Below, piece after piece: positions 97-18,029 of a stretch of 24,000 nucleotides of DNA (positions within the stretch are counted from its first letter, which is position 1; the number at the start of each line of letters is the position of its first letter). The notes beneath the pieces were generated by a model that saw only the letters and a list, made by a program, of their open reading frames with translations, had not been told where the DNA came from and ran no database searches. This stretch comes from Thermoplasmata archaeon (GTDB lineage: Archaea; Thermoplasmatota; Thermoplasmata; RBG-16-68-12; JAFNFQ01), in the NCBI GenBank assembly GCA_041489255.1, contig JBGPQV010000003.1:53448-77447 (forward strand). Direction: 5' to 3'. Made by a program: the position numbers and the translations under genes.

Positions 97-2565
97 ATGG
101 GTCTGGAGGCGGGGACCGTGAGGACTGTCGCTGCGTTATTGGTTGGGTGCCTCTTCGTGAATTCCATTTCCGGCTATGTCATGCAGCAACCGCCGTCGCC
201 TCAGACAGTGACGCTGCCATGCACGTTCGAGGTCGCCCAGGGCGGGTCGAACCATGCAGTAGAGCCCGTCGAGCGGGCGCAGACAGTCAGCTCATTCTAC
301 AACTACTTCAGCGACAGCGCACACACGCCGTTCGCCGAGGCCTACGTGAGCGTGCTCTATCTCTATCTTGACACCGGAAGCAGCAGGTTGTACTTCGTGT
401 TCCACTTCAATGTCGACGGAAGCGGAACGCCTGATGCACTGACGGATGTTGAGCTGCAGGGAATCCCGGCAGGAGCTTCAGTGGCGGTCTCCGACGACCC
501 CGGGGAGTTCAACCTCGCGCGCAATCCCCAGGGCCAGTTCCATTACTTCACCAACACTGACGGCGGCGCCCTTGGACCGCTGCCGACGAGCAGCGAGTGG
601 ACCATGAAGGTGGACCTGACCCACTATGGCCCGGACCCGGCGCGCTACCAGCGCTGGGTCGATAGCGACGGTACTCACATCCCGCTTTCGATGACGGGGC
701 AGGTCACGATCGGGAGCGCATGCAACAAGCCGCCTGTGGCGAACGGCAGCGGGCCGTACATCGGCACCGAGGGGTCTCCGATCCTGTTCAACGCGAGCGG
801 TTCCTATGACCCCGACGGAGACGCGCTCACCTACGCATGGGACTTCGAAAACGATGGCACCACGGACATCACGACGATGAACGCCACGGTCAGCCACACA
901 TATCCTGATGACTTCAAAGGGAAAGCGAGGCTCACAGTCTCCGATGGGAAACTGCAGAATTCTACGACGGTCGACGTGGGCGTGAAGAATGTCTCTCCGT
1001 CAATAACCTTCGACTCAGTCACGGATTCTCCAGAGGGCGGTGTGATCACGCTGCAGTTCAGCATCACCGACCCAGGAGCAGATCCGGTGAATGTCACGGT
1101 GGACTGGGGAGACGGCCTCCCGCCAGAATTCATCGGCCCATGGTTCAACCCGAGCGGACAGACGGTGACCGCCACGTGGACTTACGGAGATGACGGCAGC
1201 TTCCCGCTCGAGATCACCGCAACCGACGACGATGGCGGGGTCGGGATGCTGGAAGGCAAGTTCGCGATAGTGCAGAACCTCCCGCCGACAATCATCGCAC
1301 TTTCATTCCCAGCCACCGCAGACGAGGGGTCGCTCGTCGACATGACCGCAACCGGACAGGATCCGGGGAGCGATGACCTCCGTTTCACCGTGGACTTCGG
1401 AAACGGCGAGGTGGAGTCGAGGGTTTTCTACAATGACGGGGCCCGCCCTGACCCGCCGCTGAGCCCGCTCGGGACGTTCCCGTTCGCAGCCACGTCCACA
1501 TTCACGGCATTCTACCCGCAGGACGGGGACTATGCCGGGGAGTTGACGGTGCAGGATGACGATGGCGGTAGTCTCGTGGTCACCTTCTACATCAACATTC
1601 AGAATGTTCCTCCGACGATTATCCCCTTCGGACCGGTCTATGTCGACGAGGGATCACCCGGCAGCATGACCGCCACCGCAACAGACCCGGGCAACGACAC
1701 GCTCGCATTCCATTGGGAGTTCGAACTCGGGCCCACCCTGGACGAGACATTCCCCGCAACCGGATCGCCAATGAGCGCCACCAGCACCGCCGCCTTCCTG
1801 TACGGGGATGACGGCAACTATTCCGTCCTCCTCACTGTGACAGATGAGAACGGCGCCTCTGCGGTGTATGAGACAGCGGTCATCGTCAGGAATGTCGCAC
1901 CGACCACGCGGATCGTCCAGGTCAACCGTCCAGGAACGTTCACGCTGCGCGTTGCGGGAGAGAAGTGGCACGATGTCGAAGGCATCTTCTTCATCAACGA
2001 CACTGTGCTCGGCGACCTGCGCATCGTCAGGATGCCGGGCTCCCCCGATGATCAGGCGATGTCAACGAACGTGACGGACCTGTTCCTATCGGCCAACTAT
2101 TCCGCGAGGATCGTGTACACACCAGAAGACGACCCGATCAACGGGCAGCCTAATGGCGCGAACCCCGTGTGGATCATGGTCGGGTCTCCAGGTGAGGAGC
2201 CGATCAGAATACACCACACGTTCAATGTCAACCACCCCGGGACCTACGTATGGGAGGTGGACCTCACGCCGTATGTGGCGAGATTGGCGGTTCAGTTCAA
2301 GGCGGTGGCGGTAGACCCGGGCAGCGACGACCTGACGTTCGAGTGGGACTTTGGGGACAACAGCACGATCCAGAACTCAACGGCGTTCAACGATGATGTC
2401 GGGCCGGACCCGCCAGAGAGCCCGGGCGGTACCTTCCCGTTCACCGCTGCGAGCGAGGTCAGCCATGCTTTCGCGAGCCCTGGAACCTATGTAGTCAGGC
2501 TGACCGTTCATGACGATGATGGCGGGAGCTCGACCACCAGTATGACCATCGCGATCCTTGGCTGA
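97..2565 (+). CDS. Secreted multi-PKD-repeat surface protein (822 aa)
   Basis: ATG at 97. The N-terminus has a hydrophobic signal-like segment (VAALLVGCLFVNSISG). At least five PKD-type repeats have cores WDFENDG, VDWGDG, VDFGNG, WEFELG and WDFGDN. Each is followed by a strand of the form [LI]T[VA].D[DE].G (LTVSDGK, ITATDDDGG, LTVQDDDGG, LTVTDENG, LTVHDDDGG). It is a single long ORF with no competing frame. Confidence 0.85.
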   Translation: MGLEAGTVRTVAALLVGCLFVNSISGYVMQQPPSPQTVTLPCTFEVAQGGSNHAVEPVERAQTVSSFYNYFSDSAHTPFAEAYVSVLYLYLDTGSSRLYFVFHFNVDGSGTPDALTDVELQGIPAGASVAVSDDPGEFNLARNPQGQFHYFTNTDGGALGPLPTSSEWTMKVDLTHYGPDPARYQRWVDSDGTHIPLSMTGQVTIGSACNKPPVANGSGPYIGTEGSPILFNASGSYDPDGDALTYAWDFENDGTTDITTMNATVSHTYPDDFKGKARLTVSDGKLQNSTTVDVGVKNVSPSITFDSVTDSPEGGVITLQFSITDPGADPVNVTVDWGDGLPPEFIGPWFNPSGQTVTATWTYGDDGSFPLEITATDDDGGVGMLEGKFAIVQNLPPTIIALSFPATADEGSLVDMTATGQDPGSDDLRFTVDFGNGEVESRVFYNDGARPDPPLSPLGTFPFAATSTFTAFYPQDGDYAGELTVQDDDGGSLVVTFYINIQNVPPTIIPFGPVYVDEGSPGSMTATATDPGNDTLAFHWEFELGPTLDETFPATGSPMSATSTAAFLYGDDGNYSVLLTVTDENGASAVYETAVIVRNVAPTTRIVQVNRPGTFTLRVAGEKWHDVEGIFFINDTVLGDLRIVRMPGSPDDQAMSTNVTDLFLSANYSARIVYTPEDDPINGQPNGANPVWIMVGSPGEEPIRIHHTFNVNHPGTYVWEVDLTPYVARLAVQFKAVAVDPGSDDLTFEWDFGDNSTIQNSTAFNDDVGPDPPESPGGTFPFTAASEVSHAFASPGTYVVRLTVHDDDGGSSTTSMTIAILG

Positions 2566-2714: not shown

Positions 2715-3126
2715 CCATTATGGGATAAATTCTTGTCCCGATTCCTGCACTCGCTCTCACAGGTGGAACATGGAAATTGAATGAACGAAGACTAGCCCTG
2801 AAGACTCACAGGAATCGCGGGCAAAGATGATCGCCGAAAATAATAGGGCGTTGAACCGATATGTGGCAGGAATTAGTAACCAAAGCCTAACGAAGGTGAA
2901 AGAGCGAGCCGATTCTCTCCAAATGGCCATGGATCAGTTGGGGAATGATGTGTGCCCGGCAGCTGCCGACCTCAACAAGGTAGCAAGCTGCGTGCGGCTG
3001 CCAACGTGGGACGCAATCTGCGAATCTCTTATCGTGAAAGCATATCCTCCCCATGGCTTAGCGGACTAGGTGACCACTTGATTGAATCTACCCTCTTGCT
3101 GCGCCTGCTCTGCGCCCAGCCGCGGT

Positions 3127-3672
3127 TCACAACTGCACGAAGAGGCAATTATAGACCGTCGGAGGTCCGGGCTCCCCCGGTGCATTGCCTTTCATGCCAG
3201 GCACTCTTAGGGAGAGTATCGACCATGGCAGCACCTCGATGCCTTCGTTCTCGAGTTGTCTCAGTATGCAGTCCTCCAGATGTTTCAGTCTGTCGGGCAC
3301 GATCTCGGGGTCCTGCCACCCTCTTTCCCCCAGCACACCCCAGTGGAACCTCGCAAGCGGCCGCGCCTTGCTGATGTGTATGAAGGCTTCGTAATCGCCC
3401 ATCCTTATCTGGCCCGGCTTCGTGCGAGGGTCCCTCGAAACAGGTTTCAGTCTCGACTCCGAGGTCCTTATCCAGTGGCATATGTCGTAGTTCCCATCTA
3501 GCCAATAATACGCGTTTACGCCGCATTCGTCTCTGATGCGTTGGCAAAGTCTCTCCACCTTGGCACAATCTCTCATCGTGAATTCGAACTTGGGGTCCAT
3601 CTTGTCGAAATCCATCGATGGATACATCTCTCTTGTCAGACGGATTATCTTGTCCGGAATCACGCTCTCCAT
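3127..3672 (-). CDS. Putative immunity protein, paralog 3 (orphan copy, 181 aa)
   Basis: ATG at 3670..3672, 16 nt downstream of the stop of the orphan toxin tip. By hand count about 155/181 residues are identical to the ORF at 4795..5340. It has no signal peptide. The block YYWLDGNYDICHWIR is shared, and the C-terminus is CLF-x-x-x. Confidence 0.75.
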   Translation of the reverse strand: MESVIPDKIIRLTREMYPSMDFDKMDPKFEFTMRDCAKVERLCQRIRDECGVNAYYWLDGNYDICHWIRTSESRLKPVSRDPRTKPGQIRMGDYEAFIHISKARPLARFHWGVLGERGWQDPEIVPDRLKHLEDCILRQLENEGIEVLPWSILSLRVPGMKGNAPGEPGPPTVYNCLFVQL

Positions 3673-3688
3673 TCAAATCATCTCATGG

Positions 3689-3871
3689 TTATTTCTGCTG
3701 TCGCCAATCGTTCACTGCTTTAATCCAGGCCCATACATTCTCATCTTTCACGGGGAAGAATGAAATTATCGAACCATCCGAAGCCCTTACAACAATTTTC
3801 ATCTCGTCGATGTCACGCATCCCTGGTCTATACGTGTATGTTCGTCTGACTGAATCTTGGCTTGCCAGAAT
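3689..3871 (-). pseudogene. Orphan 5'-truncated toxin C-terminal tip (60 codons plus stop), homologous to the last 60 aa of the giant protein
   Basis: My minus-strand translation is ILASQDSVRRTYTYRPGMRDIDEMKIVVRASDGSIISFFPVKDENVWAWIKAVNDWRQQK-stop. The giant protein tail is IKLDTNSGNLIYTYKPHMYGIDEVTIVVRASDGSIISFFPVQGENVWAWIKALNDWRQQI-stop, about 41/60 identical by hand. The frame is closed upstream by an in-frame TAG at 3872..3874. The fragment is too short to appear in the ORF track. Confidence 0.75.
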
Positions 3872-3927
3872 CTAACAGGAAATCGATATCCTGTAGAGAC
3901 CCGTCTTTCTGGCCCTCACATGACCAT

Positions 3928-4473
3928 TCAAATCCAGGAGAAGAGGCATTCGAACACTCTTGGCGGCTCTGGATTGTCGAACACCCGACCTCCCATGCCT
4001 GGCACTGGGCGGAGCAAGATATCCCTCGGAATGACCTCGATGCCCTCCGATCGTAGTTGGCTCAGTATGCACGTTTCAAGGGATTTCAGCTTTGCTGGCG
4101 GTTCGGGGAGTATCTCCCAGTGAAGCTTCCCTAGAACTTGCCAGGTCATTGCTGCCAGCGGGGCCGCCCTGCTGATATTCATCTGAACCTCGATGTCTCC
4201 AGTCCTATAATCCTCATGGCGAGCTTTGGGGTGCCCCGACACAGGCTTCTCCCTCGAGGTTGAGAGCCGTATCCAGTGACAGATGTCGTAGTTGCCGTCT
4301 AGCCAGTAATGGACGTTGACTTGACATTCCGATTCCAGGCGTCTGCAAAGCCTTTGCACCCTCGCAGGGTCGTCCTTTGAGCGCGCAAGGCGGGAATCCC
4401 TTTCGTTCACGTTCATGGTTGGATAAATTTCTCTTATCAAACGCATCAGGTCATCTGGGATTGCTGTTTCCAT
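3928..4473 (-). CDS. Putative immunity protein, divergent paralog 2 (181 aa from ATG 4473)
   Basis: The internal ATG at 4471..4473 gives METAIPDDLMRLIREIYP..., colinear with MQSVIPDKIMRLIREMYP... in the paralogs and the same 181-aa length. GGTGA lies 8-12 nt upstream. It shares HYWLDGNYDICHWIR and the C-terminal ECLFSWI. Roughly half its residues are identical to the other two copies. Confidence 0.7.
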   Translation of the reverse strand: METAIPDDLMRLIREIYPTMNVNERDSRLARSKDDPARVQRLCRRLESECQVNVHYWLDGNYDICHWIRLSTSREKPVSGHPKARHEDYRTGDIEVQMNISRAAPLAAMTWQVLGKLHWEILPEPPAKLKSLETCILSQLRSEGIEVIPRDILLRPVPGMGGRVFDNPEPPRVFECLFSWI

Positions 4474-4489
4474 CTCTGTCACCGTTTCG

Positions 4490-4794
4490 TCAAAACTGTT
4501 GAACCCATCTTGAGGGGCTTGGGTCTTGTGCCAAGAAATCCATCCTTGACCTAGTTCCGTGGCGGGAGGCAGCATCGCGCTGCAGCTGGAGGTACACCGT
4601 CTTCCTCCTTCCATCCCTTTCAAACTCCCCGAATATCGAACGGCCGATGTTCATTTGACCGCACGGATGGAATGCGCTTGGGGCATTTAAGCCATCATTT
4701 GGAAAGCAGTCAAATCTTTGCGCCCAATCTCTCTTCCATCGATTGGATGCGGTATCGGAGTCGGGCGTACTCGCCGCAGCCGCTCGGCTGCAAT
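4490..4794 (-). other. Possible second orphan toxin-tip remnant (open frame ending at TGA 4490..4492)
   Basis: An open frame ends exactly 16 nt upstream of the paralog-2 ATG, the same spacing as the other two tip/immunity junctions. Its tail ...SRWVQQF only faintly echoes ...NDWRQQI. It has no credible start codon (only TTG at 4816, inside the upstream gene). It cannot be resolved by eye. Confidence 0.25.
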
Positions 4795-5340
4795 TCATAT
4801 CGACGAGAAGAGGCAATTATAGACAGTCGGAGGTCCCGGTTGCCCAGGTGCATTACCTTTCATACTAGGTACTCTTAGGAAGAGAATCGACAATGGCAGC
4901 ACCTCGATGCCTTCATTCCTGAGTTGATTCAGAATGCAGTCGTCCAGCTGTTTCAGTCTGTCGGGCACATTCTCGGGGTGCTGCCACCCTCTTTCCCCGA
5001 GCACACCCCAGTCGAACCTCGCAAGGGGCCGGGCCTTGCTGATGAATATGAAAGCCTCGTAACTGCCCATCGTCTTCTCTTCCGGCTTCGTGCGAGGGTC
5101 CCTCGAAACGGGTTTCAGTCTCGACTCCGAGGTTCGTATCCAGTGGCATATATCGTAGTTCCCGTCTAGCCAATAGTACACGTTCACGCCGCATTCTTCT
5201 CTAATGCGTTGGCATAGTCTCTCCACCTTGGCGCTGTCTCTCATCGTGAACTCGAACTTGGGGTCCATCTTGTCGAAGTCCATCGATGGATACATCTCCC
5301 TTATCAGACGCATTATCTTGTCCGGAATCACGCTCTGCAT
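4795..5340 (-). CDS. Putative cognate immunity protein, paralog 1 (181 aa)
   Basis: ATG at 5338..5340, 16 nt after the giant gene stop (5357..5359). The spacer, read on the minus strand, is TCATGAGATGATCTGA and contains a GAGATGAT SD-like motif. It is a small cytosolic-looking protein and is paralogous to 3127..3672 and 3928..4473. Confidence 0.75.
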   Translation of the reverse strand: MQSVIPDKIMRLIREMYPSMDFDKMDPKFEFTMRDSAKVERLCQRIREECGVNVYYWLDGNYDICHWIRTSESRLKPVSRDPRTKPEEKTMGSYEAFIFISKARPLARFDWGVLGERGWQHPENVPDRLKQLDDCILNQLRNEGIEVLPLSILFLRVPSMKGNAPGQPGPPTVYNCLFSSI

Positions 5341-5356
5341 TCAGATCATCTCATGA

Positions 5357-8300
5357 TTATATCTGCTGTCGCCAGTCGTTCAATGCTTTAATCCAGGCCC
5401 ATACATTCTCACCTTGCACAGGGAAGAATGAGATTATCGAACCATCTGAAGCCCTAACGACGATGGTTACCTCATCAATACCATACATGTGAGGCTTATA
5501 GGTGTAGATAAGATTGCCTGAATTGGTATCGAGCTTGATGTCTCCCAACGGGGTATTTCTTAGACCGTCCCTGAGCAACTCCCAGACTTGTGCGTCGGTC
5601 ATTGCCGGAGGGAGCGTCTTTTCGATTGGATATCCAGTGATGGTCTTGCCCGTCGGGAAGAAGGATGTAATATCCTTATCCAAGCTGACTATGCTGCCTT
5701 CAATGTGGCGGCCAATGACATGGAACTGACCAAACCGCCCGTCTCCCATTTTGAGGACCGCGATGCCGTCGGGCAATCCGCTGGCCTTCCATGCTTTCAA
5801 CACTTCATCAGCGCCAGCACCTTCGTCGAGCGGGTTAGCACCGTTCTTCCTAACCCACGCTCCGAACCTTTCGAGGGCCCCAGGTTCGAGTTCGATTACA
5901 TCTTTTGTCACAGACCTCCAGACACCCTCTCGAATAGCTCTATCCGGAAAGGCGGCTTCGAAACCGATTACTTCAGCCTCTGGAAGTCTCAACAACGCCT
6001 TTGTCCTTCCGCGAAGGATGTCGTCTGATATGCCGAGGACATCCGCACTCCACTTGGTCATCAGCACCAAGCCCGCCAGCCCGATTCCGTTCGCGAACAT
6101 CTCCTCGAAGAAGCCTCCGAACAGCTCTGCAAGTGCGTAGCTGCCAGCGAAGATGGCACCCGCAAGGGCGAGTTTCACTGTGCATCGGCCGAAGTATTCA
6201 TAAGCCCTAGCTGCGAAACTGATGATTCTTTGGAGGGGACCGAGCTTGGAAAGTGCTTGAGTAATCATTGCCCCAATGTTTCCAGCTTCGAGGGCTCCTT
6301 TGACAGCGGCTCCCGCACCCGCCGTCACAATCATTCCGATTATATTTCCGATCCAATACCAGTAATTGAATGTCTCGTGATCATTGCTCATGTCCCAGGG
6401 ATCGTTGTCGCCGTCGGGAACCGGGTCGTAGGGATTGGCGTTTTCTGCTTGTTGAACTAAAGCGTCGTAGAGAGACCCAAGAGCGTTTCGCAATGTATCA
6501 CCGGGATTCCCGCTATTGAGCAGGTCATGCCCGAACGATGCGCCAGAATCGAACAGCGAACCTGCATTTTTCATAATGGACGGTATGCTCGTGAACATCC
6601 CCGAGAAACAATCCCACAAGCCGACTGCCATCCCTCCAACCTCTGGACCAAGATACTTGACCGTCAGGTCTTTCAGAAGGTCCCGAGCTCTGTCAAAATA
6701 TGTGTCTTGCTTGAGCCAGTAATGGTTTGCATTGCCGTTGACGTCCACCACATAGAAATCGACGGTCTTGCCCGTGAATGCATCCAAGAAGCCGATGCTG
6801 AAGTCCTTATTGCGAGTGTCGAAGATATTCGCATAGAGATCGTCGTTGGAATACTCCTTTCCATCAACGACAGTTATTAAGGACCCTAGCCCCACGTTGT
6901 CGGACATGACGATGGTGACGTGGACACACTTCAGCCCTTCCCAGCAAAGTGAGGTGGACCAAGACAAATCAATGTAAGGAACGACCAATTCCACTACGCT
7001 GGGTTCGTCATCTATGTCATCTTTCATCCTATCTCCATCGCTGTCCTGCTTTCTTGGGTCAACTTTCTGTAAGAACTCCATCAGATCATTTAGCCCGTCT
7101 CCGTCCGTGTCTTTCTTGTCCGGATCGGAAGTCACGTGGTAGCGAGTAAAGAGTGGCCTTATGGCCTCCGACACCATGTTCTGGGCGTGGACTGGAAGGG
7201 ATGTATCGTCGAGTATGCGGGTCATCTCGTAGACGTTCGCGACGGAGGTGAGCATGACCGTGTCCCATCCTAGGATCTCTATTCCGTCGAGCAGAAGGTC
7301 CCCGTCGCAATCAGGATTCAGCGGGTTAGTCACCCATCCATAAACACCAGTGACTTCTTCGCCATCTTTGAGTCCGTCGCCATCCGTGTCGGGTTCCAAC
7401 GGATTCGTCCCGTATCCACCGCCAGGATTCGGCTCCCCCAGGTAGCCCACCTCACCTAACTCTTCACCAGAATCCCAGACTTGGTTGCGCAAGGTGTCGT
7501 GCCAGCCATCCCAGAGTCCGTCCCCATCCGTATCAGAGAGCACGGGACTTGTGCGGTAGTTCCGTTCCCCCATCAGCTCGCCAGAATCCCATATTTGATT
7601 GGGAGTCCCCTGATTGTCATTCCAGCCGTCCCAGAGTCCGTCCCCATCAGAGTCTGGATCGCATGCGTTTATGAGGCTATCACCATCAGTGTCAACCCAC
7701 CAGTCTATTTCCGAACCATCTAAGATTCCATCTCCGTCACTGTCAGGATTTGTTGAGGAAAGGCACGAGTAGGCAGGTAAGCCCTCGATTCCGTCGCTCA
7801 GTCCATCGGAATCGGAATCCAGCAGATCTTCCGGCGTGTAATCTCTGCCGCCTAGAATCACGAGAATCGATTCGAGCAATAGATCGCCCTTGGTGCTCGA
7901 GTGGAACCGAATCGGTATGAATTGATAACCGTCCACATCCGGGTAGCTCGCCAGCAATGCGTTGATAGCGTCGGTATCCAAAAGCACAATCAGGTGGTCA
8001 GTCCATGGAAATGGGATGCCTGCATCAGGGCTGACATATCCCTCTTGCTTCCACTCAGGATTGTCATCCCCCTCTGATGTCACGATATTGATGGAGACAT
8101 CATGCGGATAATCTACGCAAAACATCTGATATACCAAAGAGCCCGAATCGGTAGTCCAATCAATCGATTCGAAGAAATTAACATCGTAGAGCAAAGCATG
8201 GTTTGCCCAAATTCGCGCGTCGTCGCTCGCGGCCCAATAGAATTCCCCGTTGAACATCCTTAGTATCATCCAGTATGTGGTTTCCGCTTCTAGCAGTACT

Positions 8301-11300
8301 GGGGAATCGAATCGAAACTCAAGCCAACCGTAGAGGGCGCCGGATACTTCGACTGAAGAAACGGCATAATCGCTTGCCAGAGGTCCAATTTCGCCGGTGG
8401 AGAGATCCCATGAGGCCGCCTCACCCAAGACGAGGTCGATCCATGCGGTTTCGCCAGTCGGAATGGCGTAGGCGACTGCGACTTTGACCGTAATTAGAGA
8501 TTGAGGCCCATCGCTGGAGGAAATGTAGAATGGGACGCCCGCCGCGTATCCGGCCCATCCGTCATCAGGAACATGCAGCCCCGGGAATGTTGGGTTGGAG
8601 TCATGAGAACCTGACCATTTGTGGGGCTGGAATGTCAGGACCACCCGCGGAGCATCCCAACCCATCACTGGTTTGACTTGTTCAAGAACCCCTTTCTTGA
8701 CGGGGACTTTCAGATAGAGCTCGGTGTCTCCGCCGGTGTCTCCGCCAGCATCCTCAAAGAGCGTCCATGTATACCAATACGTCCCCACCTCCGGAGTTGC
8801 GCATTGGCCTGCATCATTGGTGCTACAAAGCCACTTGGGCCATTCCTCATACGCAGCGGCGCCGAACTCGGTGCCGTCTTTCGCCCCATCTGCATCGAAA
8901 TCGCGCTGGAAGCTGTCAGCCATGGCGAAATCGCCTAGGGCGCCAGAAAGAGACCAGACGTAGTCATACGCGGTATTCCTCCAAGTCTCCTCACCGATGT
9001 ACTTATGTTTCATCGGAACCCATTCGCCTGCGTCCCCATTCCCATCCCAATGATACATCAAGAGTCCATCCTCGCCCACTGGATTCCCTAAGTTGTCGAC
9101 TGGACCCTCTGGATAACTGATTTTGACCACAGCGCGGTAGCCTTGAGCTGACGAGGTCTCCACGTGAATCACCTGCCCTACGAGCCCTGCATCAGTGAAT
9201 GTCTGAGAACCTTCGGTAATGGTGACCGTTGCGCCAGGGTCAGGCATACCAAAATCGAGGGCCACACTCACTCCAAGGTCTCTGTTGACTGCAATCACAT
9301 CAGGCTCGAAGTCGGACGGGAGCAGGATTCCGAGCGTTGGGTTTGCGGCAGCGTCTGGGTCGATGTCGTATTCTAGGTTGCGAACGTCAAGGCCATCAGG
9401 TATCAAGTCGTAATCTGTGTCAGCGTCTGCGGGGTTGGTGTTCTGAAGATATTCCTGTAGGTTCGTGAGAGTGTCCCCATCCTTATATTCGGAAGAGTCA
9501 TCATAGGTCGGCAATAGTCCGTATTTCACTTCCCAACCATCCGGCATCCCGTCAGGCTCTGTGTCCGCCTGTATAGGATTGGTGTCAGTCTGGATTTGCT
9601 CCACTGAATCGGTTAGCCCATCATTATCGCTGTCAGGTATGTTCGGATTGGTCTCAGCGGTTCCCTCCAGCCCCGTCCATGAGCCAGTATCTACGCGGCC
9701 GTCGATGTCACGATCTTCGAATTCCCCCTGTTCGATTCCATCGCTGTCAGTGTCAATCCACCCGTCGGGCAAACCATCTGAATCGCTATCCACATTCAAC
9801 GGATTCGTTACCGTAGTTGGGTCCTCATCCGGGACGAATCCTGATGGTGCTCCCAAGGTCTGCGAGTCCCCGTCATTCTGCCAATCCGCAAGAGAATCGT
9901 AGCCTTGAGGCCAAGGGAGCCCTGCTTCCTGTCCGTCTGTCAGGTGATCACCATCTGTGTCGCGCATACTTGGATTCGTTTCGATGTTGTCGACACAACC
10001 ATCGCGGTCTACATCCTCAGTGCCGTCCCATAAACCGTCGTCATCTGTATCTCTATCCAGAGGATTCGTGGTTGTGCTTGAATCGGAATCTCTCTTGGGG
10101 ATGCCAAATATGTCTCTGTCCAGTGTGTCGCCAACCTCCGGCAACCCAAGCTCAAGTCCATCAGGAAGCCCGTCACCATCCGTATCCGCAATCGAAGGGT
10201 CGGTTTCCTCTGCATCGATGTTGCCGTCAAGGTTCTTGTCCTCGCTCTCCCATCTGTCAATCAGTCCATTCCCTTCCGTTCCCTGGGGATTCGTTGCGGG
10301 ATCGTAGTCATCATGGTCAGGGTCAGGATTGCCGATCAGGTCATATCCGGGTTCCTGCCAGCTGAAAAGACAGCCTGACGCCCCCAAGCCACAATCCACC
10401 CATCCATCTGGCAGCCCATCCTTGTCTGTGTCTATGCTTGTGGGATTAGTCGTCACGGAGTCTGGGACATCATATCCTGGTACACCGGTCTCCACTCCAT
10501 CCCCCAATCCATCATCGTCCGTGTCGGCATCCAGAGGATTCGTTAGATAGGTATCACTACCTCGAACGGCTTCCTCGCCGTCCTTCACGCCGTCATCGTC
10601 TGAGTCATCATCCAGGGGGTTCGTTTCGCCTGGACCATCTCCATCATTCCATACGCCCGCATCTGTTGCGCCATTCAGGTTTCGGTCTTCGAACTCTCCT
10701 GAATTCCGCGTCTGATCGTCATTGAAGTCAATCCACCCATCGGGTAGCCCATCATTGTCCGTGTCCCAGCGGAGCGGGTCAGTGACCGTGCCTGGGTCCG
10801 AGTCGATTCCAAGAAGACCGACCTCCAGTCCGTCGGGCAATCCATCCCCGTCTGTATCTGCTTGAGATGGATTCGTCTCTCCTGGCCCAGAACCGGGGCC
10901 GCTTCCGGCATCCCATGCCCCGGTATCCACCACACCGTCGAGGTCACGATCCTCGTATTCACCGACATCGCGCAGGCCATTGCTGTTTAGGTCAAACCAG
11001 CCATCGGGAAGTCCGTCTCCATCCGTGTCTATAATAGTCGGGTTCGTGGTCGTTAATGGATCGGAGTCAGGGCCATAACTAACGCCATCGACAATGCCGT
11101 AACCCCACGGAGGGGATAGCGTGTCTGAGGCGCGCATCGGGGAGTCGTCGGTGAGCCCCACCTCCAACCCATCCGAGAGATGGTCGCCGTCCATGTCTGG
11201 ATTGAGCGGATCTGTGATGAATGTATCCTCGCCTGCGAATAGTTCTTCCCAGTCTGTCAAGCCGTCGTTGTCGGTATCATCGCTCGTCGGATTGGTTCCA

Positions 11301-13960
11301 TATAGTTCGACTTCGGCATAATCGAGCAGCAGGTCCCCGTCGGTATCGGGATTGTTCTTATTCAAACCATTCGCGTCCTCCCATTCGTCCCTCAGTTGGT
11401 CACCGTCTGAGTCCAGTTCGATAACGACTATGGCAGTGTCATCGCCAAAGGACCCAGAAGCGTCCGTTGCCGTGAGAGAGACCGTGTATGTCCCAGATAC
11501 TGTGAATGTATGAACGGTATTCGGCATCATTTCGTGAGGGCTGCCGTCGCCGAAGTCCCAGACGAAAGTGAGCGGTTCACCATCATCATCTTCCGCCTCA
11601 GCAGAGAATATTATGGGCGCAGCGGCGCCATGGATTCTCCGATCAGGACCTGCGAACGCAGTTGGCGGAGTGTTCGCGACTCTAATAAGGTGAGTATCAT
11701 AGGACACAAGCCCGTGCTTGTCCGTCACACGGAGGGTAGCCGAGTACTCGCCCCGAGAAGAATACCGATGCATTGTGCGCGAGCCCGAGCCCGTCGAAGA
11801 GTCGCCGAAGAACCAAAGATAGGAGAGGTCGGACAAGTCGTCCTGGCCGTCGGAGGAATGGATGCCGCTGAGTACCGATGCATGCGTCTCTGCTCCTAGG
11901 GAGAGGACCTCAAAGGCGGCATTCGGAGCAACGTTAGAGACCGTAACGCTATGGGTCTTGGTGCTCATGACCCCGTTGTCGTCAGTGACTGTTAGAATCA
12001 CGCCATAGCTTCCTTCCCGCCTGTAGGAATGGGTAGGCGAGACGCCTGAGGCCTTAGCTCCGTCTCCGAACTGCCAATAGTAGTCCAGAGCCGTGCGATC
12101 TGAAGCTGTGTCGGTCGAAAGGGAACCGTCATAGTACACCATCGTGTCCTCATCTACTTGGGAGGGTGTGAATGCGAAGTCAGCGTTCGGCGCCCCATTC
12201 GTCACACTGACACGTCTGCTGTTAGCGCCCCAGTCCCCCTTCCCGTCTGTGACCTTCAGCACTACGGTGTACGTTCCGGCGCGCAAGTACGCATGAGTGG
12301 TCGAGGCGGTGCTCGTGGTGGCCGTCACGCCGTCGCCAAGATCCCAAAAGAAAGATGGAGCCGGCGAGGAGGGCCCGTCGCTGTCCGCGTATATGCCCGT
12401 GAAGGTGAATGTCTGGTCCTCGGCTTTTGTCGCCGCGTTCACGTTGACGGCCGTAATCTCGGGAGCCTTGTTGTCCAGCACCCCGCCCTTGAACGTGCAC
12501 GTGGCAGTGTTCGTGCCCCCATCCCCATCGTCGGCCTTCAGGGTGACGGTGTATGTCGTCTTGGAGGAGGGGAATTTATGCGTCACGTTCCACCACACAC
12601 GGTAGGGGGAAACGTGGCTTGGGTTTGCGAACGTCTGGACAGCGTCAGCGCTCCCGTCCCCGAAGTGCCACGTTAAGGTGAGGGCGTCGGCGCCGACCTC
12701 ATGGGCAATCCCTTTGAGGACGGACGATGTCGCCCCGACGATTGATGCGTACGGCGCGCGGTTCTGCACGGTGACGGTCACGCTGGAAGTGGTAGAAGCC
12801 GAATGAGGATCGGTGACCGCGAGGTTCACCGTCGCGGATGTCTCATCGTACCATACATACGTTGGCCTGCTCCCTGTCATCGATGCACTACCACTCCACG
12901 AATAAGCCAAGGCGTCGGCATCGCTCGACGTATCGGTGGACGCGGTGGCATCGAAGAGCACTGTCTGTGCTTCCGAAACGGTGATTGAATTGCCTGCTGT
13001 TGCCGTCGGCGCTCCGTTGGCGACGTTCACCACATGCTGCGTGGTTGACGTGGCGTCGTTGTCGTCGCGGACGGTAAGCAGAACAGCGAAGTTGCCCGGA
13101 GATGAATACGCATGGGTGATGGTCCTACCTTGGCCATACTGCCCGTCTCCGAAATCCCATGCGAATGTCAGCGGGTGCCTAGTGATGGCGTTGCCCGGCA
13201 AGGCGTTGTCAGTTGCGGTGTCTGTTGAACCCGAGGCGTCGAACGTCACTACAGCATCCATGTATGGACTCGTAGGAGAATAGACGAAAGAGGCAGACGG
13301 ATTGGCATTCACAATGACCACGTTCCGAGTCGCCGTGTCGGCGTTCCCGGCTGCGTCTCGCACGATCAGGTGCACGCGATAGGTTCCTGCGTATCCATAG
13401 GAATGCGTCTCAATGCCTGCAGTGCTCGTTGCCCCGTCACCAAAATCCCATTCGTATCGGAGATCCTCTCGCGGGTATGTGGCCGGCCACGAGGTCGTGG
13501 CATCAAACTGAATGCTCTCGTCCTCCGCCACGCTTGCGGTGTCAGCCGGAGTCGTGAGGATGACTGCCCCGGGAACTCCCCCTGATCCGTAGCTCGGACT
13601 CTTGATGTGGATGCGGATTGTGTCCAGAGCCATCGTCCCAGTCGACTCTTCGGCAACCAAAGCCACGTCGTAAATCCCGTCCGTTGTGAACGAGTGTACA
13701 GGTGAAGGATCCGTCGAAGAGGTGCCGTCTCCGAAAAACCATGTGAAAGATAAGGCATTTCCGGGTTGCCCGGGGCTTGACCCACTTGAGTCAAACTCGA
13801 TGTCTTCTCCCGGATCTGCCGGGTCTGACTCTTCGGTTCCGTCGAGCGCATCCGCCACGGCGACAGGCGGCGGATAGCTCGCCTTGACAAGAGTTGTGGC
13901 GCCTGAGATCACGGTTATAAAGGCCAAAGCCAAAGCCATTAGACTTCTCATCCCGATCAT
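5357..13960 (-). CDS. Giant secreted polymorphic-toxin-like protein (about 2867 aa from ATG 13960)
   Basis: ATG at 13958..13960 is preceded by GAGGAGGA and followed by the signal-like MIGMRSLMALALAFITVISGATTLVKA. A PKD block (approx 11422..13860) has nine W-x-F-G-D-G-type cores. TSP3-like acidic Ca-binding repeats (DTDGDGLPDG, DTDNDGLTDWEE and similar) occupy approx 9385..11421 and 7010..7830. An unassigned module lies at approx 7831..9384. A hydrophobic Gly/Ala-rich segment lies at approx 6050..6640. A distinct C-terminal domain of about 230 aa lies at 5360..6049. The coordinates include the stop codon. Confidence 0.85.
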   Translation of the reverse strand: MIGMRSLMALALAFITVISGATTLVKASYPPPVAVADALDGTEESDPADPGEDIEFDSSGSSPGQPGNALSFTWFFGDGTSSTDPSPVHSFTTDGIYDVALVAEESTGTMALDTIRIHIKSPSYGSGGVPGAVILTTPADTASVAEDESIQFDATTSWPATYPREDLRYEWDFGDGATSTAGIETHSYGYAGTYRVHLIVRDAAGNADTATRNVVIVNANPSASFVYSPTSPYMDAVVTFDASGSTDTATDNALPGNAITRHPLTFAWDFGDGQYGQGRTITHAYSSPGNFAVLLTVRDDNDATSTTQHVVNVANGAPTATAGNSITVSEAQTVLFDATASTDTSSDADALAYSWSGSASMTGSRPTYVWYDETSATVNLAVTDPHSASTTSSVTVTVQNRAPYASIVGATSSVLKGIAHEVGADALTLTWHFGDGSADAVQTFANPSHVSPYRVWWNVTHKFPSSKTTYTVTLKADDGDGGTNTATCTFKGGVLDNKAPEITAVNVNAATKAEDQTFTFTGIYADSDGPSSPAPSFFWDLGDGVTATTSTASTTHAYLRAGTYTVVLKVTDGKGDWGANSRRVSVTNGAPNADFAFTPSQVDEDTMVYYDGSLSTDTASDRTALDYYWQFGDGAKASGVSPTHSYRREGSYGVILTVTDDNGVMSTKTHSVTVSNVAPNAAFEVLSLGAETHASVLSGIHSSDGQDDLSDLSYLWFFGDSSTGSGSRTMHRYSSRGEYSATLRVTDKHGLVSYDTHLIRVANTPPTAFAGPDRRIHGAAAPIIFSAEAEDDDGEPLTFVWDFGDGSPHEMMPNTVHTFTVSGTYTVSLTATDASGSFGDDTAIVVIELDSDGDQLRDEWEDANGLNKNNPDTDGDLLLDYAEVELYGTNPTSDDTDNDGLTDWEELFAGEDTFITDPLNPDMDGDHLSDGLEVGLTDDSPMRASDTLSPPWGYGIVDGVSYGPDSDPLTTTNPTIIDTDGDGLPDGWFDLNSNGLRDVGEYEDRDLDGVVDTGAWDAGSGPGSGPGETNPSQADTDGDGLPDGLEVGLLGIDSDPGTVTDPLRWDTDNDGLPDGWIDFNDDQTRNSGEFEDRNLNGATDAGVWNDGDGPGETNPLDDDSDDDGVKDGEEAVRGSDTYLTNPLDADTDDDGLGDGVETGVPGYDVPDSVTTNPTSIDTDKDGLPDGWVDCGLGASGCLFSWQEPGYDLIGNPDPDHDDYDPATNPQGTEGNGLIDRWESEDKNLDGNIDAEETDPSIADTDGDGLPDGLELGLPEVGDTLDRDIFGIPKRDSDSSTTTNPLDRDTDDDGLWDGTEDVDRDGCVDNIETNPSMRDTDGDHLTDGQEAGLPWPQGYDSLADWQNDGDSQTLGAPSGFVPDEDPTTVTNPLNVDSDSDGLPDGWIDTDSDGIEQGEFEDRDIDGRVDTGSWTGLEGTAETNPNIPDSDNDGLTDSVEQIQTDTNPIQADTEPDGMPDGWEVKYGLLPTYDDSSEYKDGDTLTNLQEYLQNTNPADADTDYDLIPDGLDVRNLEYDIDPDAAANPTLGILLPSDFEPDVIAVNRDLGVSVALDFGMPDPGATVTITEGSQTFTDAGLVGQVIHVETSSAQGYRAVVKISYPEGPVDNLGNPVGEDGLLMYHWDGNGDAGEWVPMKHKYIGEETWRNTAYDYVWSLSGALGDFAMADSFQRDFDADGAKDGTEFGAAAYEEWPKWLCSTNDAGQCATPEVGTYWYTWTLFEDAGGDTGGDTELYLKVPVKKGVLEQVKPVMGWDAPRVVLTFQPHKWSGSHDSNPTFPGLHVPDDGWAGYAAGVPFYISSSDGPQSLITVKVAVAYAIPTGETAWIDLVLGEAASWDLSTGEIGPLASDYAVSSVEVSGALYGWLEFRFDSPVLLEAETTYWMILRMFNGEFYWAASDDARIWANHALLYDVNFFESIDWTTDSGSLVYQMFCVDYPHDVSINIVTSEGDDNPEWKQEGYVSPDAGIPFPWTDHLIVLLDTDAINALLASYPDVDGYQFIPIRFHSSTKGDLLLESILVILGGRDYTPEDLLDSDSDGLSDGIEGLPAYSCLSSTNPDSDGDGILDGSEIDWWVDTDGDSLINACDPDSDGDGLWDGWNDNQGTPNQIWDSGELMGERNYRTSPVLSDTDGDGLWDGWHDTLRNQVWDSGEELGEVGYLGEPNPGGGYGTNPLEPDTDGDGLKDGEEVTGVYGWVTNPLNPDCDGDLLLDGIEILGWDTVMLTSVANVYEMTRILDDTSLPVHAQNMVSEAIRPLFTRYHVTSDPDKKDTDGDGLNDLMEFLQKVDPRKQDSDGDRMKDDIDDEPSVVELVVPYIDLSWSTSLCWEGLKCVHVTIVMSDNVGLGSLITVVDGKEYSNDDLYANIFDTRNKDFSIGFLDAFTGKTVDFYVVDVNGNANHYWLKQDTYFDRARDLLKDLTVKYLGPEVGGMAVGLWDCFSGMFTSIPSIMKNAGSLFDSGASFGHDLLNSGNPGDTLRNALGSLYDALVQQAENANPYDPVPDGDNDPWDMSNDHETFNYWYWIGNIIGMIVTAGAGAAVKGALEAGNIGAMITQALSKLGPLQRIISFAARAYEYFGRCTVKLALAGAIFAGSYALAELFGGFFEEMFANGIGLAGLVLMTKWSADVLGISDDILRGRTKALLRLPEAEVIGFEAAFPDRAIREGVWRSVTKDVIELEPGALERFGAWVRKNGANPLDEGAGADEVLKAWKASGLPDGIAVLKMGDGRFGQFHVIGRHIEGSIVSLDKDITSFFPTGKTITGYPIEKTLPPAMTDAQVWELLRDGLRNTPLGDIKLDTNSGNLIYTYKPHMYGIDEVTIVVRASDGSIISFFPVQGENVWAWIKALNDWRQQI

Positions 13961-14053: not shown

Positions 14054-14071
14054 AACTGTGTTGAACAAATC
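14054..14071. repeat. IS terminal inverted repeat (left)
   Basis: AACTGTGTTGAACAAATC. It matches the reverse complement of 15084..15101 at 17/18 positions. Confidence 0.85.
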
Positions 14072-14109
14072 CCGTCTTTTTCTCCCTCCGACCTCCCGAC
14101 CTCCCGCCA

Positions 14110-15033
14110 TCAGGGCATCTGCAGGAGCATCGCGTAGACAGCGAACTTCGCCATGACCTCCCTGTACATCAGGTCGAGCCTCCTCGCCATCACGTTCTCC
14201 CCGAATATCCTCTTCTCGCCGGAGAAGGTCCACTCAGCCGCCCACCTCATCCCATACCCGTGTTTCTCCCTCCAGCCATCGTACCCGAGGGACCTGAGCT
14301 CCCTCACCGCCCTCGGCCTGGCCGATGAGCCCAACGATTTGCAGGTCGCACCAGCCTTGATCCTGATCCCCGCCCCGATTCCTTTGTCCTCCAGGAGCTG
14401 GAAGTTCGCGCGGCTGTCGTAGGCGGCGTCGGCGAGGACCTCCCGTATGCGCCCCTTCCCCAGGGCCCTCTCCGCCTTCTCCAGCAGGGCGGGGAACATC
14501 GTCGTGTCGCCTATCCCCTCGTCGGTAGCTTTCATCGCCACGGGCCCTCCGTCAACGTCCACCGCCAGGTGCACCTTTATCCAGCCCCGGTGGCGGTGCC
14601 ACTTCTCCCTCATCCACTCCCCCCTGTTCGTGACCTTGATTCCCGTGCTGTCGAAGGCGATCACGAACGGCCCGTCACCCTGAGGCGCGGGAATCTCAAG
14701 CTCCATGTCGGCTATCCGCCACCAGAGGGTCGTGTAGTCGGCAGGCCTGACCTTCCCCACGAACTTCGACATGCCGCAGAGGAAGCCCTCCATCTGCCTG
14801 TACTGCATCCTGAGGATCTGCCTGACGGCGGCGAGGAATCGCATCATGCTCTCGGGGAAGCCGTATGGACGCCCCCTCTTCCCGCCGTTCATCGTCCTCA
14901 GTTCGTCTTCCCACGAGTCCAGCCAGTCCATGCTGAGGTACAGCTCCCCCCGCCGGACGAGCCGCTCGTTGTACCCGGGCCAATTCCTCTTATCCTTGTA
15001 GTGCCTTTCACCCTCGCTCGGCATGGGTCCCAT
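14110..15033 (-). CDS. DDE transposase (IS4/IS5 superfamily)
   Basis: The N-terminal RNWPGYNERLVRRGEL motif is typical of IS5-like transposases. Acidic triad candidates lie in VIAFDSTGIKV and LADAAYDS, with the signature Y-x2-R-x3-E-x6-K in YGMRWAAEWTFSGEK. The start of the longest ORF at 15045 is TTG. ATG codons at 15033 and 15024 are more likely starts. Confidence 0.85.
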   Translation of the reverse strand: MGPMPSEGERHYKDKRNWPGYNERLVRRGELYLSMDWLDSWEDELRTMNGGKRGRPYGFPESMMRFLAAVRQILRMQYRQMEGFLCGMSKFVGKVRPADYTTLWWRIADMELEIPAPQGDGPFVIAFDSTGIKVTNRGEWMREKWHRHRGWIKVHLAVDVDGGPVAMKATDEGIGDTTMFPALLEKAERALGKGRIREVLADAAYDSRANFQLLEDKGIGAGIRIKAGATCKSLGSSARPRAVRELRSLGYDGWREKHGYGMRWAAEWTFSGEKRIFGENVMARRLDLMYREVMAKFAVYAMLLQMP

Positions 15034-15083
15034 CCCTGCTGACAAGGCAGGTTCTCATGCCGAGTTCCCACCATCAAACCATC

Positions 15084-15101
15084 GATTTATTCAACACAGT
15101 T
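15084..15101. repeat. IS terminal inverted repeat (right)
   Basis: GATTTATTCAACACAGTT. Its reverse complement matches 14054..14071 at 17/18 positions. Confidence 0.85.
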
Positions 15102-15446: not shown

Positions 15447-15869
15447 ATGCCCCCCGAGGAAGAGCGAGAAGGCGAGATGGAGGAACCTCAGGAGCTGGCC
15501 CAAGAACAGGCCCCGGAAGTCCCCGTGGCCCCGCCAAAGCCCGAGTTGCGCATCGTCGACTTCTCGACAAAGAAGATCAATCCGTTCTGCACCGTCTGCG
15601 GTCTCGAGAAGGACAAGTACATGGAGGTCGAGGTCAAGGGAGTGATCGAGTACACATGCAGGGACTGCTACCGCAGGTCGAGGGGCGCGCCCGCCATGCC
15701 TCCGGCGGCGACCTGCAGGAAGTGCGGAACGCCGATGCAGGTGGGCGACAACTTCTGCGGGAAGTGCGGCAACCCCGCGGTGCTCAAGTGCACAGCCTGC
15801 AACAATGAGGTGGAGGAAGAGGACAGGTTCTGCGCGAAGTGCGGGGCGAAGCTATCCTTCGCGGACTAG
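15447..15869 (+). CDS. Triple zinc-ribbon protein with acidic N-terminus (140 aa)
   Basis: ATG at 15447. Three CxxC...CxxC pairs are present: CTVC...CRDC, CRKC...CGKC and CTAC...CAKC, in a double-zinc-ribbon style. The N-terminus MPPEEEREGEMEEPQELAQEQ is Glu-rich. Confidence 0.7.
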   Translation: MPPEEEREGEMEEPQELAQEQAPEVPVAPPKPELRIVDFSTKKINPFCTVCGLEKDKYMEVEVKGVIEYTCRDCYRRSRGAPAMPPAATCRKCGTPMQVGDNFCGKCGNPAVLKCTACNNEVEEEDRFCAKCGAKLSFAD

Positions 15870-16793
15870 CACCGCAGATCCCCTGGGCAGCTTGAATATC
15901 TTCCTTGGCAGCGGGCTCGTCTCGTGCACGCGGAAGCTGCCGAGGTTCGCCTCGAAGCTCTTGACGCCGTCGAGCGAGGTGCTCCCGCCGCCGAGGCTGT
16001 TCCACAGTAGGAACACCACATCGTCCAGTATCTCGTTCTTCACGGCGGTGCGCAGCTCCTCCGCGTTCCCGCCGCGGACGAAGACTATCGGCTCCAGGAT
16101 CATCTCCAGCTCTATCATGGCGGTTGAGCCGGTCTTCGTGATGACCAGGGAGTTCGATTCCGCCCCGCCCTGGAGCGCGGGCACCTCGATCGTGTTCGTG
16201 TCCTTCTTGACCCTGAGGCCATCGCCCCGCAGGTCCCTCTCGACGAGCGCGAGCATCTCCTGCTCCAGGTAGCCGGGCACGAAGTCGACTCTGGGCAGGG
16301 TCGTCTCCCGCCTCAGGCTGAAAGCGAGCGGGCAGCGGTAGGACTTCATCTCCTCCTTGTAGGATATCGATTCGACGATCTCCGGCTTCACCGGTTGCGC
16401 GCCGTCCCTGAGCACGAAGAACTCCGTGTCCGTCCCGTCCGTCACCACGCTCAGGTAGTTCTCGTGGCGGGAGGCTCTGGACTTGAGGGTGCTGTCGTCA
16501 GTCGCGCTGTGGAACACCGCGTGATCTGTCTCGTCCCTGAAGGGATGGCTGTGGAAGATGCCGACGATGCCCACGTTCCTGGGGTACTGCATCGCCAGCT
16601 CGACCTCCTCCCTCGCGTCCGCATGCGCGCCGTATCTGCTCTGCGACTTGTACCTGGTGCAGGGGACCGAGTCGCAGACCCAGACCTCGCTCCTCCCGAA
16701 GAAGCCGAGGAGCCAGCCGATCGTCTCGACGCCTCTCGACCGCGCGACCTCGTTCACGTGGATGTTGATCTTTCGCAGCGCGCTCCGCTGCAT
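15852..16793 (-). CDS. JAMM/MPN+ metallopeptidase with an uncharacterised C-terminal domain (313 aa from ATG 16793)
   Basis: JAMM signature: the Glu in VETIGWLLGF, then GIFHSHPFRDETDHAVFHSATD (H-x-H...S-x-x-D, codons approx 16497..16553). ATG at 16791..16793 lies 14 nt after the E1 stop. A GTG overlapping the E1 stop (GTGA) is an alternative start. The last ~200 aa match no family I recognise. Confidence 0.8.
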   Translation of the reverse strand: MQRSALRKINIHVNEVARSRGVETIGWLLGFFGRSEVWVCDSVPCTRYKSQSRYGAHADAREEVELAMQYPRNVGIVGIFHSHPFRDETDHAVFHSATDDSTLKSRASRHENYLSVVTDGTDTEFFVLRDGAQPVKPEIVESISYKEEMKSYRCPLAFSLRRETTLPRVDFVPGYLEQEMLALVERDLRGDGLRVKKDTNTIEVPALQGGAESNSLVITKTGSTAMIELEMILEPIVFVRGGNAEELRTAVKNEILDDVVFLLWNSLGGGSTSLDGVKSFEANLGSFRVHETSPLPRKIFKLPRGSAVLVREG

Positions 16794-16807
16794 GCGCACG
16801 CTGACCG

Positions 16808-18026: not shown

Positions 18027-18029
18027 GCC

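Follow-up and report, generated by a model that had tools for sequence, protein, structure and literature searches.

A putative polymorphic toxin–immunity locus with a giant PKD- and TSP3-like protein in a Thermoplasmata archaeon

Results and Discussion

Organisation of the locus

On contig JBGPQV010000003.1 of a Thermoplasmata archaeon (assembly GCA_041489255.1), a gene for a giant protein with a predicted C-terminal toxin domain is followed by three small paralogous genes, imm1, imm2 and imm3, which are predicted to confer immunity. The analysis covered 24,000 nucleotides (nt) of this contig (positions 53,448 to 77,447 of the forward strand), here called the window. Coordinates are those of the window unless a related locus is named. 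The giant open reading frame (ORF) is located on the minus strand and extends from an ATG at 13960 to a stop codon at 5357..5359, as read from the ORF list and the translation. The JGI gene call gives the same length of 2867 amino acids (aa). A longer version with a GTG start was rejected: it would overlap the transposase gene upstream. The protein is very acidic, with an isoelectric point of 4.05. From the N- to the C-terminus, the gene comprises the following features.

5357..13960, minus strand: predicted giant toxin gene, 2867 aa, stop codon included (ORF list, JGI gene call, Pfam PKD and TSP3_bac)
13880..13960, minus strand: predicted Sec-type signal peptide, aa 1-27 (MIGMRSLMALALAFITVISGATTLVKA), Kyte-Doolittle 2.17
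11411..13843, minus strand: PKD (Ig-like) array, ~aa 40-850, boundaries approximate (PF18911, PF00801)
9386..11413, minus strand: TSP3-like calcium-binding block 1, ~aa 850-1525, rich in aspartate, 17 of the 25 motifs
7826..9385, minus strand: central region, ~aa 1526-2045, without a Pfam family or recognisable domain
7001..7825, minus strand: TSP3-like block 2, ~aa 2046-2320, 8 of the 25 motifs
6041..7000, minus strand: conserved pre-toxin module, aa 2321-2640, with a beta-rich domain, a helical part with NPY at aa 2509 and Gly/Ala-rich hydrophobic helices
6281..6364 and 6041..6184, minus strand: hydrophobic helices of the pre-toxin module, aa 2533-2560 and aa 2593-2640 (hydrophobicity)
5768..6040, minus strand: variable linker, aa 2641-2731, ~90 aa, poorly conserved and of different length among relatives
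5360..5767, minus strand: C-terminal toxin domain, aa 2732-2867, predicted EndoU-like or BECR-type ribonuclease (RNase)

No other segment of the giant protein is as hydrophobic as the N-terminus MIGMRSLMALALAFITVISGATTLVKA, which resembles a Sec signal peptide. Pfam recognised PKD_4 (PF18911) in nine stretches with an E-value of 2.7e-113 and PF00801 with 6.7e-74. A motif count revealed 25 D-x-D-x-D-x-h-x-D motifs in two blocks, aa 850-1514 and aa 2048-2306. TSP3_bac reached 19.6 bits, below its cut-off of 25, with the best stretch at aa 2191-2204. An earlier note on this DNA, made from the letters alone, had described a secreted protein of ~2867 aa with PKD and TSP3-like repeats; the ORF, the signal-like N-terminus, the nine PKD stretches and the 25 calcium-binding motifs agree with this description. 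The note had seen no Rhs/YD repeats, HINT domain or VENN motif, and a Pfam scan combined with a motif search detected no VENN, YD or HINT signals in the giant protein either. A receptor-binding function of the central region (aa 1526-2045) is only a guess. Scans of the window with Rfam and for tRNA genes gave no match.

A C-terminal domain on different scaffolds

The last 240 aa of the giant protein were compared by HMMER with 1.84 G cluster representatives. At E <= 1e-3, the search yielded 49 matches, of which ~44 are real and five are artefacts of the repeats. In the ~44 relatives, proteins of 110-3230 aa, the match covers only query aa ~105-237. It ends a few residues from the C-terminus, or within ~50 residues of it in a few short proteins. 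The earlier note had assigned ~230 aa to one distinct C-terminal domain. A distinct conserved domain does exist, but it comprises ~135 aa (aa 2732-2867) and stands behind the poorly conserved linker of ~90 aa, with which it does not form a unit.

The scaffolds of the relatives include PKD together with TSP3 repeats, arrays of CARDB, CarboxypepD_reg and MG2 domains, fn3 arrays and cysteine-rich giants of low complexity. A form of 169 aa has its own signal peptide. Judged from this distribution, the toxin-like domain is a C-terminal module that was shuffled among unrelated scaffolds. It constitutes an unannotated EndoU/BECR-like family that is absent from Pfam and NCBIfam. When queried with the toxin-domain profile, a word-indexed set of 5.8 G proteins gave only five small proteins, and with the last 240 aa as query the search found nothing, not even the giant protein itself; it is a poor test of rarity for the toxin and immunity families.

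Predicted enzyme type of the toxin domain

All members of a 45-sequence alignment of the family (A3) have H26, P43, G45 and G124. Of the 45 sequences, 41 have H21 and 40 have R25, and alignment position 118 is a serine or threonine in 42. Strong conservation is also seen in the motifs T-S-F-F-P-T-G and G-x-I-x-[TS]-[AS]-[YF]-P. The invariant histidine is part of an H-x4-H motif. Conserved residues of the giant protein are H2747, R2751, H2752, T2765, P2769, G2771, S2844, P2847 and G2850. An AlphaFold2 model of the domain, computed with the family alignment, has a predicted local distance difference test score (pLDDT) of 95.8 and a predicted template modelling score (pTM) of 0.89. It consists of an N-terminal helix with both histidines, a second helix and a six-stranded antiparallel sheet.

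EndoU_bacteria (PF14436) was the only Pfam family matched repeatedly, namely by 10 of the 45 members with a best E-value of 3.9e-4. The family consensus matched PF14436 with an E-value of 9.3e-5 and 23.2 bits, below the gathering cut-off of 25.3, and colinear to the end of the Pfam model. Both families have a size of ~130 aa, are located at the C-terminus of polymorphic toxins and share a ...G-x-I-x-T-A-Y-P strand. They differ in that the new family stays below the gathering score, with the window sequence having no match at all, in the H-x4-H spacing of the histidines and in the catalytic lysine, which was not found.

The top PDB sequence match of the family profile was 7M5F chain C, the CdiA-CT of Serratia marcescens BWH57, with an E-value of 0.22 over 26 residues, which is below significance. 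In this match, DNSGKIIFLEKGNSKSGLQHIVEEHG of 7M5F aligns with the family consensus 'kkngevvvleeGdekegweHikerHi', and the H-x4-H motif falls onto H47...H52. In both, the motif is preceded by 'LE.G....G', a likeness within a sequence relation that does not reach significance. The BWH57 CdiA-CT has a BECR fold, and H47, E51, H52 and R89 are candidate catalytic residues whose role is only proposed (PMC8616854). BECR RNases have a conserved alcoholic residue in a late strand (PMC3482391). The conserved serine or threonine of the toxin-domain family also lies in a late strand (42 of 45 sequences).

Foldseek searches of the model against PDB and BFVD gave no significant match, none better than E 0.1. 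The top PDB match was a BECR tRNase, CdiA-CT NC101, with the Nsp15 EndoU lower in the ranking; E-values of at least 0.2 and TM scores of 0.2-0.3 are not significant. This could reflect a distinct variant of the fold or a low sensitivity of Foldseek for this small alpha+beta fold.

The signals from PF14436, 7M5F and Foldseek, each weak and independent of each other, point in the same direction, the EndoU/BECR type. The toxin domain is most likely a metal-independent endoribonuclease of this type. A polymorphic toxin locus with another kind of toxin, that is, a DNase, a peptidase, a membrane-active protein or some other enzyme with a fold of its own, is somewhat unlikely. Such a toxin would suit a confident model that has no significant counterpart in PDB and BFVD, EndoU and BECR sequence signals that all stay below the family thresholds, and an EndoU-type lysine that was searched for without success. 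The RNase is favoured by the colinear and repeated EndoU_bacteria matches of members and consensus, the only such matches in Pfam, by the coincidence of the H-x4-H motif with the proposed catalytic histidine pair of a solved BECR CdiA toxin and by the late-strand serine or threonine as in BECR RNases (PMC3482391). The top Foldseek match, although not significant, was a BECR tRNase as well.

Three small paralogues and the repeated cassettes

Downstream of the giant gene, the minus strand carries three small genes and two frames in front of the second and third of them.

4795..5340, minus strand: imm1, predicted cognate immunity gene, 181 aa, ATG 16 nt past the toxin stop codon
4490..4816, minus strand: open frame before imm2, TTG start, 108 codons, no demonstrable toxin tip
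3928..4473, minus strand: imm2, putative diverged orphan immunity paralogue, 181 aa from the ATG at 4473, 51% identity to imm1
3689..3853, minus strand: orphan toxin tip, last ~53 aa of the toxin domain (SVRRTYTYRPGMRDIDEMKIVVRASDGSIISFFPVKDENVWAWIKAVNDWRQQK), truncated at the 5' end, with an in-frame stop codon at 3872..3874 before the tip
3127..3672, minus strand: imm3, putative orphan immunity gene of a displaced cassette, 181 aa, 86% identity to imm1

The earlier note had reported three paralogues of 181 aa that share YWLDGNYDICHWIR, each 16 nt behind a stop codon. Both observations were confirmed: the sequence is present in all three proteins, which have identities of 51-86% among each other, and the distance from stop codon to ATG is exactly 16 nt before imm1, imm2 and imm3. 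Cassette 3 (~3113..3853) is a duplicate of cassette 1 (~4781..5520) with 88% nucleotide identity in the DNA alignment, and the duplication extends into the 3' end of the toxin gene. Cassettes 1 and 3 have the same spacer because they are duplicates. In related loci, the junction between toxin gene and small ORF measures 15 nt or 9 nt, or the genes overlap.

The note had also proposed orphan toxin-tip/immunity cassettes. This holds before imm3, where the frame matches the hidden Markov model (HMM) of the toxin domain with an E-value of 9.6e-13 at profile positions 82-133. It is not demonstrable before imm2: the frame 4490..4816 has no match in Pfam, NCBIfam or PDB sequences or to the toxin-domain HMM. 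A decayed toxin tip was considered for this frame and is not counted as demonstrated, given the missing HMM match and an in-register nucleotide identity of 31-34%, which ~4% of shuffled sequences equalled. The frame is either unrelated or a remnant that may have decayed beyond recognition.

The ratio of nonsynonymous to synonymous substitution rates (dN/dS) was 0.25 for imm1 and imm3, 0.22 for imm3 and imm2, and 0.19 for the main toxin tip and the orphan tip. All three paralogues are under purifying selection. With a dN/dS of ~0.2 among the paralogues, the orphan genes are therefore not decaying pseudogenes.

The start of imm2 differs among predictions. Gene callers give 228 aa for the region 3928..4623, and the mechanical ORF has 231 aa from a TTG. 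The 47-aa N-terminal extension of the called protein has no counterpart in imm1, imm3 or their homologues. The true start is likely the ATG at 4473.

Immunity-type genes in related loci

The three Imm proteins had no match in Pfam (E <= 10), NCBIfam (E <= 1) or PDB sequences, and this includes the curated immunity families (Imm families of Pfam, SUKH, CdiI). In the word-indexed search of 5.8 G proteins, the three copies of the window were the only matches. Homologues were found by walking downstream of the toxin-domain relatives. At locus L003/L009, protein P0004 is followed by an ORF that starts with MMSLIPKHIWDLIRKAYP and ends with ...GVEILPWDLLDLTVPGMEGKPFGEPVERLTVYNCLFSSI. It has 31% identity to imm1 and an identical C-terminus, ...TVYNCLFSSI. 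At L004, an ORF containing ...IPRDVLELIRRLYP...RNDCRVHVRSWWDRNYY... follows P0010 after a gap of 15 nt. At L008, an ORF starting with MIPDDVMRSIRDTYP and containing ...RENCDVNMYIEIDRNYQHC... follows P0005 after 9 nt. The small ORFs of these loci align with imm1 over the full length, with identities of 27-31%. The immunity family is new and very small.

A small co-oriented ORF at a distance of up to 16 nt, or overlapping the toxin gene, is present in eight of the eight toxin-domain loci with downstream sequence. In the more distant relatives (L006, L007, L011 and L012/13), it overlaps or abuts the toxin gene and belongs to families unrelated to imm. The association of different immunity families with different toxin subfamilies is the usual pattern. 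According to the earlier note, its reading would fail with a small ORF family that is widespread without large secreted proteins; nothing of this kind was found, in a survey that did not include an exhaustive profile search of the immunity family.

The small ORFs might be a locally amplified family of unrelated function, with the 16-nt junction as a mere consequence of tandem duplication. In favour of this, cassettes 1 and 3 are plain duplicates at 88% nucleotide identity, the frame before imm2 lacks a toxin signal and the family has no annotated function. This explanation is nevertheless very improbable: homologues hold the same position after toxin-domain homologues in three other loci with different scaffolds, the word-indexed search found no further homologues in the 5.8 G proteins, the duplicated unit takes in the end of the toxin gene, and all copies are under purifying selection.

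Cassette replacement in relatives

A scan of the genome collection with the toxin alignment A5 found one locus, L009, on contig DATEUK010000015.1 of 'Thermoplasmata archaeon isolate SMAG_U8339'. A metagenome scan with alignment A1 gave only a chance match of 15 residues (L010). The giant protein of L009 is colinear with that of the window, with 29-33% identity over the PKD region and the last ~700 aa. The toxin domain and the immunity homologue are followed by an orphan cassette.

6036..7862 of L009 (= 2909..4615 of L003): orphan cassette with a 248-aa ORF and, downstream of it, a 355-aa gene

The 248-aa ORF copies the pre-toxin helices nearly residue for residue (VTQLVNRLRGIGPLNSRIF...FPEIFGEWFANYLGG) and continues with a different tail. 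A PD-(D/E)xK-like motif (IDILAH...IIEVKD) was read by eye in this tail. The 355-aa gene would be the immunity partner of the orphan tip. The L009 arrangement seems to be the textbook one in which recombination could swap toxin tips. In a relative with a very acidic, haloarchaeal-looking protein (L007, 10189..14524), the toxin is followed first by a 170-aa ORF, then by a 485-aa orphan in which the pre-toxin module leads into another tail, and finally by three paralogues with lengths of 242, 232 and 243 aa. This layout is an independent parallel to the three-paralogue array of the window.

The pre-toxin module

The pre-toxin module is colinear in a protein from a Thermoplasmata metagenome-assembled genome, in P0010 and P0013 and in very acidic, haloarchaeal-looking proteins. 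When seven relatives were aligned over their C-terminal 600-700 aa, a common order emerged: the last TSP3 repeats, the beta-rich domain, a helical region (LGP..GG...G) and the NPY motif. After NPY, F..xWY.GY leads into a Gly/Ala-rich hydrophobic helix, followed by the variable linker and the toxin domain. The Thermoplasmata-type group has two more hydrophobic helices before the linker. The module had no match in Pfam, NCBIfam or PDB sequences; NCBIfam matched only the TSP3 repeats with which the query begins. It could insert into the target membrane to pass the toxin, or merely anchor the protein in the producer.

A second, different segment (e.g. ...GWMLSGFIVVGDIRDIA...DG.G...) precedes the same toxin domain in P0011, P0020, P0022, P0019, P0036, P0050 and P0051 and has no Pfam match. 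This segment may resemble pre-toxin regions of the PT-TG type.

The helices also bear on the nature of the whole protein, which might be a membrane-anchored adhesin or a surface-layer-type protein. The helices would then be anchors, the tail a cytoplasmic domain with an enzymatic or signalling function, and the small ORFs accessory or regulatory partners. Three moderately hydrophobic helices are indeed located just upstream of the C-terminal domain; with the N-terminus outside, three helices would leave the tail on the cytoplasmic side of the membrane, together with the cytosolic small proteins. Other surface proteins, with PKD and SBBP domains, are encoded by flanking genes. An adhesin is nevertheless quite improbable. 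The same C-terminal domain occurs on scaffolds without helices and also as a secreted protein of 169 aa. In the orphan cassette of L009, an unrelated PD-(D/E)xK-like domain takes the place of the tail and is followed by a gene of its own; such an exchange is typical of toxin replacement rather than of an anchor tail. The truncated tip and the paralogue cassettes of the window fit a displacement.

Interpretation of the locus and proposed mechanism

The hallmarks of a polymorphic toxin system (sensu Zhang/Aravind 2012) that can be tested on sequences are all present: a multidomain protein with a signal-like N-terminus for secretion, a shuffled C-terminal domain, an adjacent and co-varying immunity-type gene, and orphan cassettes. 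The locus is probably a polymorphic toxin–immunity locus of the Sec-dependent 'toxin on a stick' kind. The polymorphic-toxin organisation proposed by the earlier note thus gains support from the shuffled domain, the linked small ORFs and the orphan cassettes. Toxicity, RNase chemistry, neutralisation by binding, a role of the helices in translocation and contact dependence are inferred.

In the proposed mechanism, the giant protein would be exported via its N-terminal signal peptide and display a long stalk of PKD Ig-like domains and calcium-binding TSP3-like repeats. The pre-toxin module may enter the membrane of a neighbouring cell and help the C-terminal part across. The last ~135 aa would act as the toxin, with the H2747/R2751/H2752 motif, T2765 and S2844 as the candidate catalytic set. 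The imm1 gene is probably co-transcribed with the toxin gene, and its cytosolic product would bind and block the toxin in the producer. Together, imm3 and the truncated tip before it may represent an older module that lost its place when recombination brought a related one into the end of the main gene, and imm2 would be a still more diverged orphan. Selection would keep the three immunity genes, plausibly against related toxin alleles of neighbours.

A more far-reaching version regards the pre-toxin module as a self-contained device: a Sec-exported protein would enter the single membrane of a neighbouring archaeon and pass an RNase without CdiB, a type VI secretion system (T6SS) or a type VII secretion system (T7SS), the toxin would have its own variant of the fold, and the immunity protein would have a new fold. 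This version is unlikely and is offered as a speculation.

Several observations weigh against a toxin–immunity locus with an RNase. The toxin domain of the window itself had no match in Pfam (E <= 10) or NCBIfam and no meaningful PDB sequence match. No conserved lysine equivalent to the catalytic lysine of EndoU was identified. The AlphaFold2 model of the immunity protein is mediocre (pLDDT 67), and a Foldseek search against PDB gave no meaningful fold match. Distant stand-alone homologues of imm may have escaped the word-indexed search of 5.8 G proteins and the neighbour walks; outside the window, these located imm homologues at three loci only, in each as the next gene after one of the closest toxin-domain relatives. 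The three hydrophobic helices, an odd number, could be ordinary stop-transfer anchors that leave the C-terminal domain in the cytoplasm of the producer.

Comparison with known systems

Archaeal polymorphic toxin systems have been predicted from genomes (PMC3482391; Makarova et al. 2019, mBio e00715-19, as cited in PMC8416519). Effectors with Ig-type domains are typical of them, their tips are mostly DNases or RNases, and as of 2021 they were described as experimentally uncharacterised (PMC8416519). Before the 2024 work on a haloarchaeal T6SS, targeted delivery of a toxin from archaeon to archaeon had not been observed (PMC11566945). Contact-dependent antagonism in archaea was shown experimentally for this T6SS-like system (PMC11566945).

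The archaeal systems share with the locus a long first gene for a secreted multidomain protein, a variable C-terminal toxin of the nuclease type, an adjacent immunity gene and downstream cassettes homologous to the C-terminal region. The difference is in the families: toxin and immunity families of the window are absent from Pfam and NCBIfam. The toxin family or the pre-toxin module may already be listed in Makarova et al. 2019. CdiA/CdiI, in particular with the BWH57 CdiA-CT and the CdiA-CT toxins of the EndoU type, resembles the locus in the toxin-on-a-stick architecture, the C-terminal toxin of the RNase type (predicted here), the adjacent immunity gene and the orphan modules. Unlike in CdiA/CdiB systems, Pfam on the giant protein and its neighbours and the motif search found no two-partner secretion domain (TPS), FHA, VENN or CdiB. 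The stalk is built from PKD and TSP3 repeats, and export presumably proceeds via Sec across a single membrane. A modular toxin at the C-terminus, an immunity gene behind it and arrays of orphans are found in Rhs/YD-repeat and LXG/T7SS toxins as well, but YD repeats, HINT, PT-TG and LXG domains are absent from the locus, and scaffold and presumed secretion route differ. On its domain content, the locus fits the broader polymorphic toxin class and not the CdiA/CdiB or Rhs delivery families.

The locus is a compact test case, with a toxin domain of 135 aa, a very confident model and candidate catalytic residues. The three immunity paralogues, graded in their identity to imm1 (100%, 86% and 51%), suit a mapping of specificity. 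The pre-toxin module, common to Thermoplasmata-type and haloarchaeal-looking proteins, could explain the passage of the toxin across the target membrane. A toxin and an immunity family are added beyond the current domain libraries.

Neighbouring genes

An insertion sequence (IS) element of ~1048 bp is located at 14054..15101 and ends 94 nt upstream of the ATG of the giant gene. Its terminal inverted repeats of 18 nt are 94% complementary and enclose a DDE transposase gene (14110..15045, minus strand; DDE_Tnp_1_5, DDE_Tnp_1). A transposase gene, of the IS110 type, is also located directly upstream of the toxin gene of a relative (L005).

Between the IS element and a JAB gene, the opposite strand encodes a double zinc-ribbon protein of 140 aa (15447..15869, plus strand; Zn_Ribbon_1 E 1.6e-13, DZR E 8.9e-12). 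The JAB gene belongs to an operon of the ubiquitin-type conjugation kind at 15852..18275 on the minus strand. It comprises an E2-like gene (17556..18026; Pfam UFC1 E 5.5e-9), a ThiF-type E1 gene (16808..17563; E 6.5e-52) and the JAB/MPN-like gene (15852..16997), which had weak matches. An 81-aa ORF (18030..18275) just upstream of the E2 gene ends with ...PSIVG and could be a ubiquitin-like partner. A UFM1-like identity of this ORF was rejected: there was no match by BLASTP to human UFM1 or in Pfam and PDB.

Other genes in the surroundings encode surface-type proteins. A PKD protein of 822 aa (97..2565, plus strand) is convergent with the immunity array. A DUF7948 and SBBP beta-propeller protein of 914 aa (18332..21076, minus strand) has a C-terminal hydrophobic stretch followed by RRRK, and a further DUF7948/SBBP/CARDB protein is encoded on the source contig outside the window.

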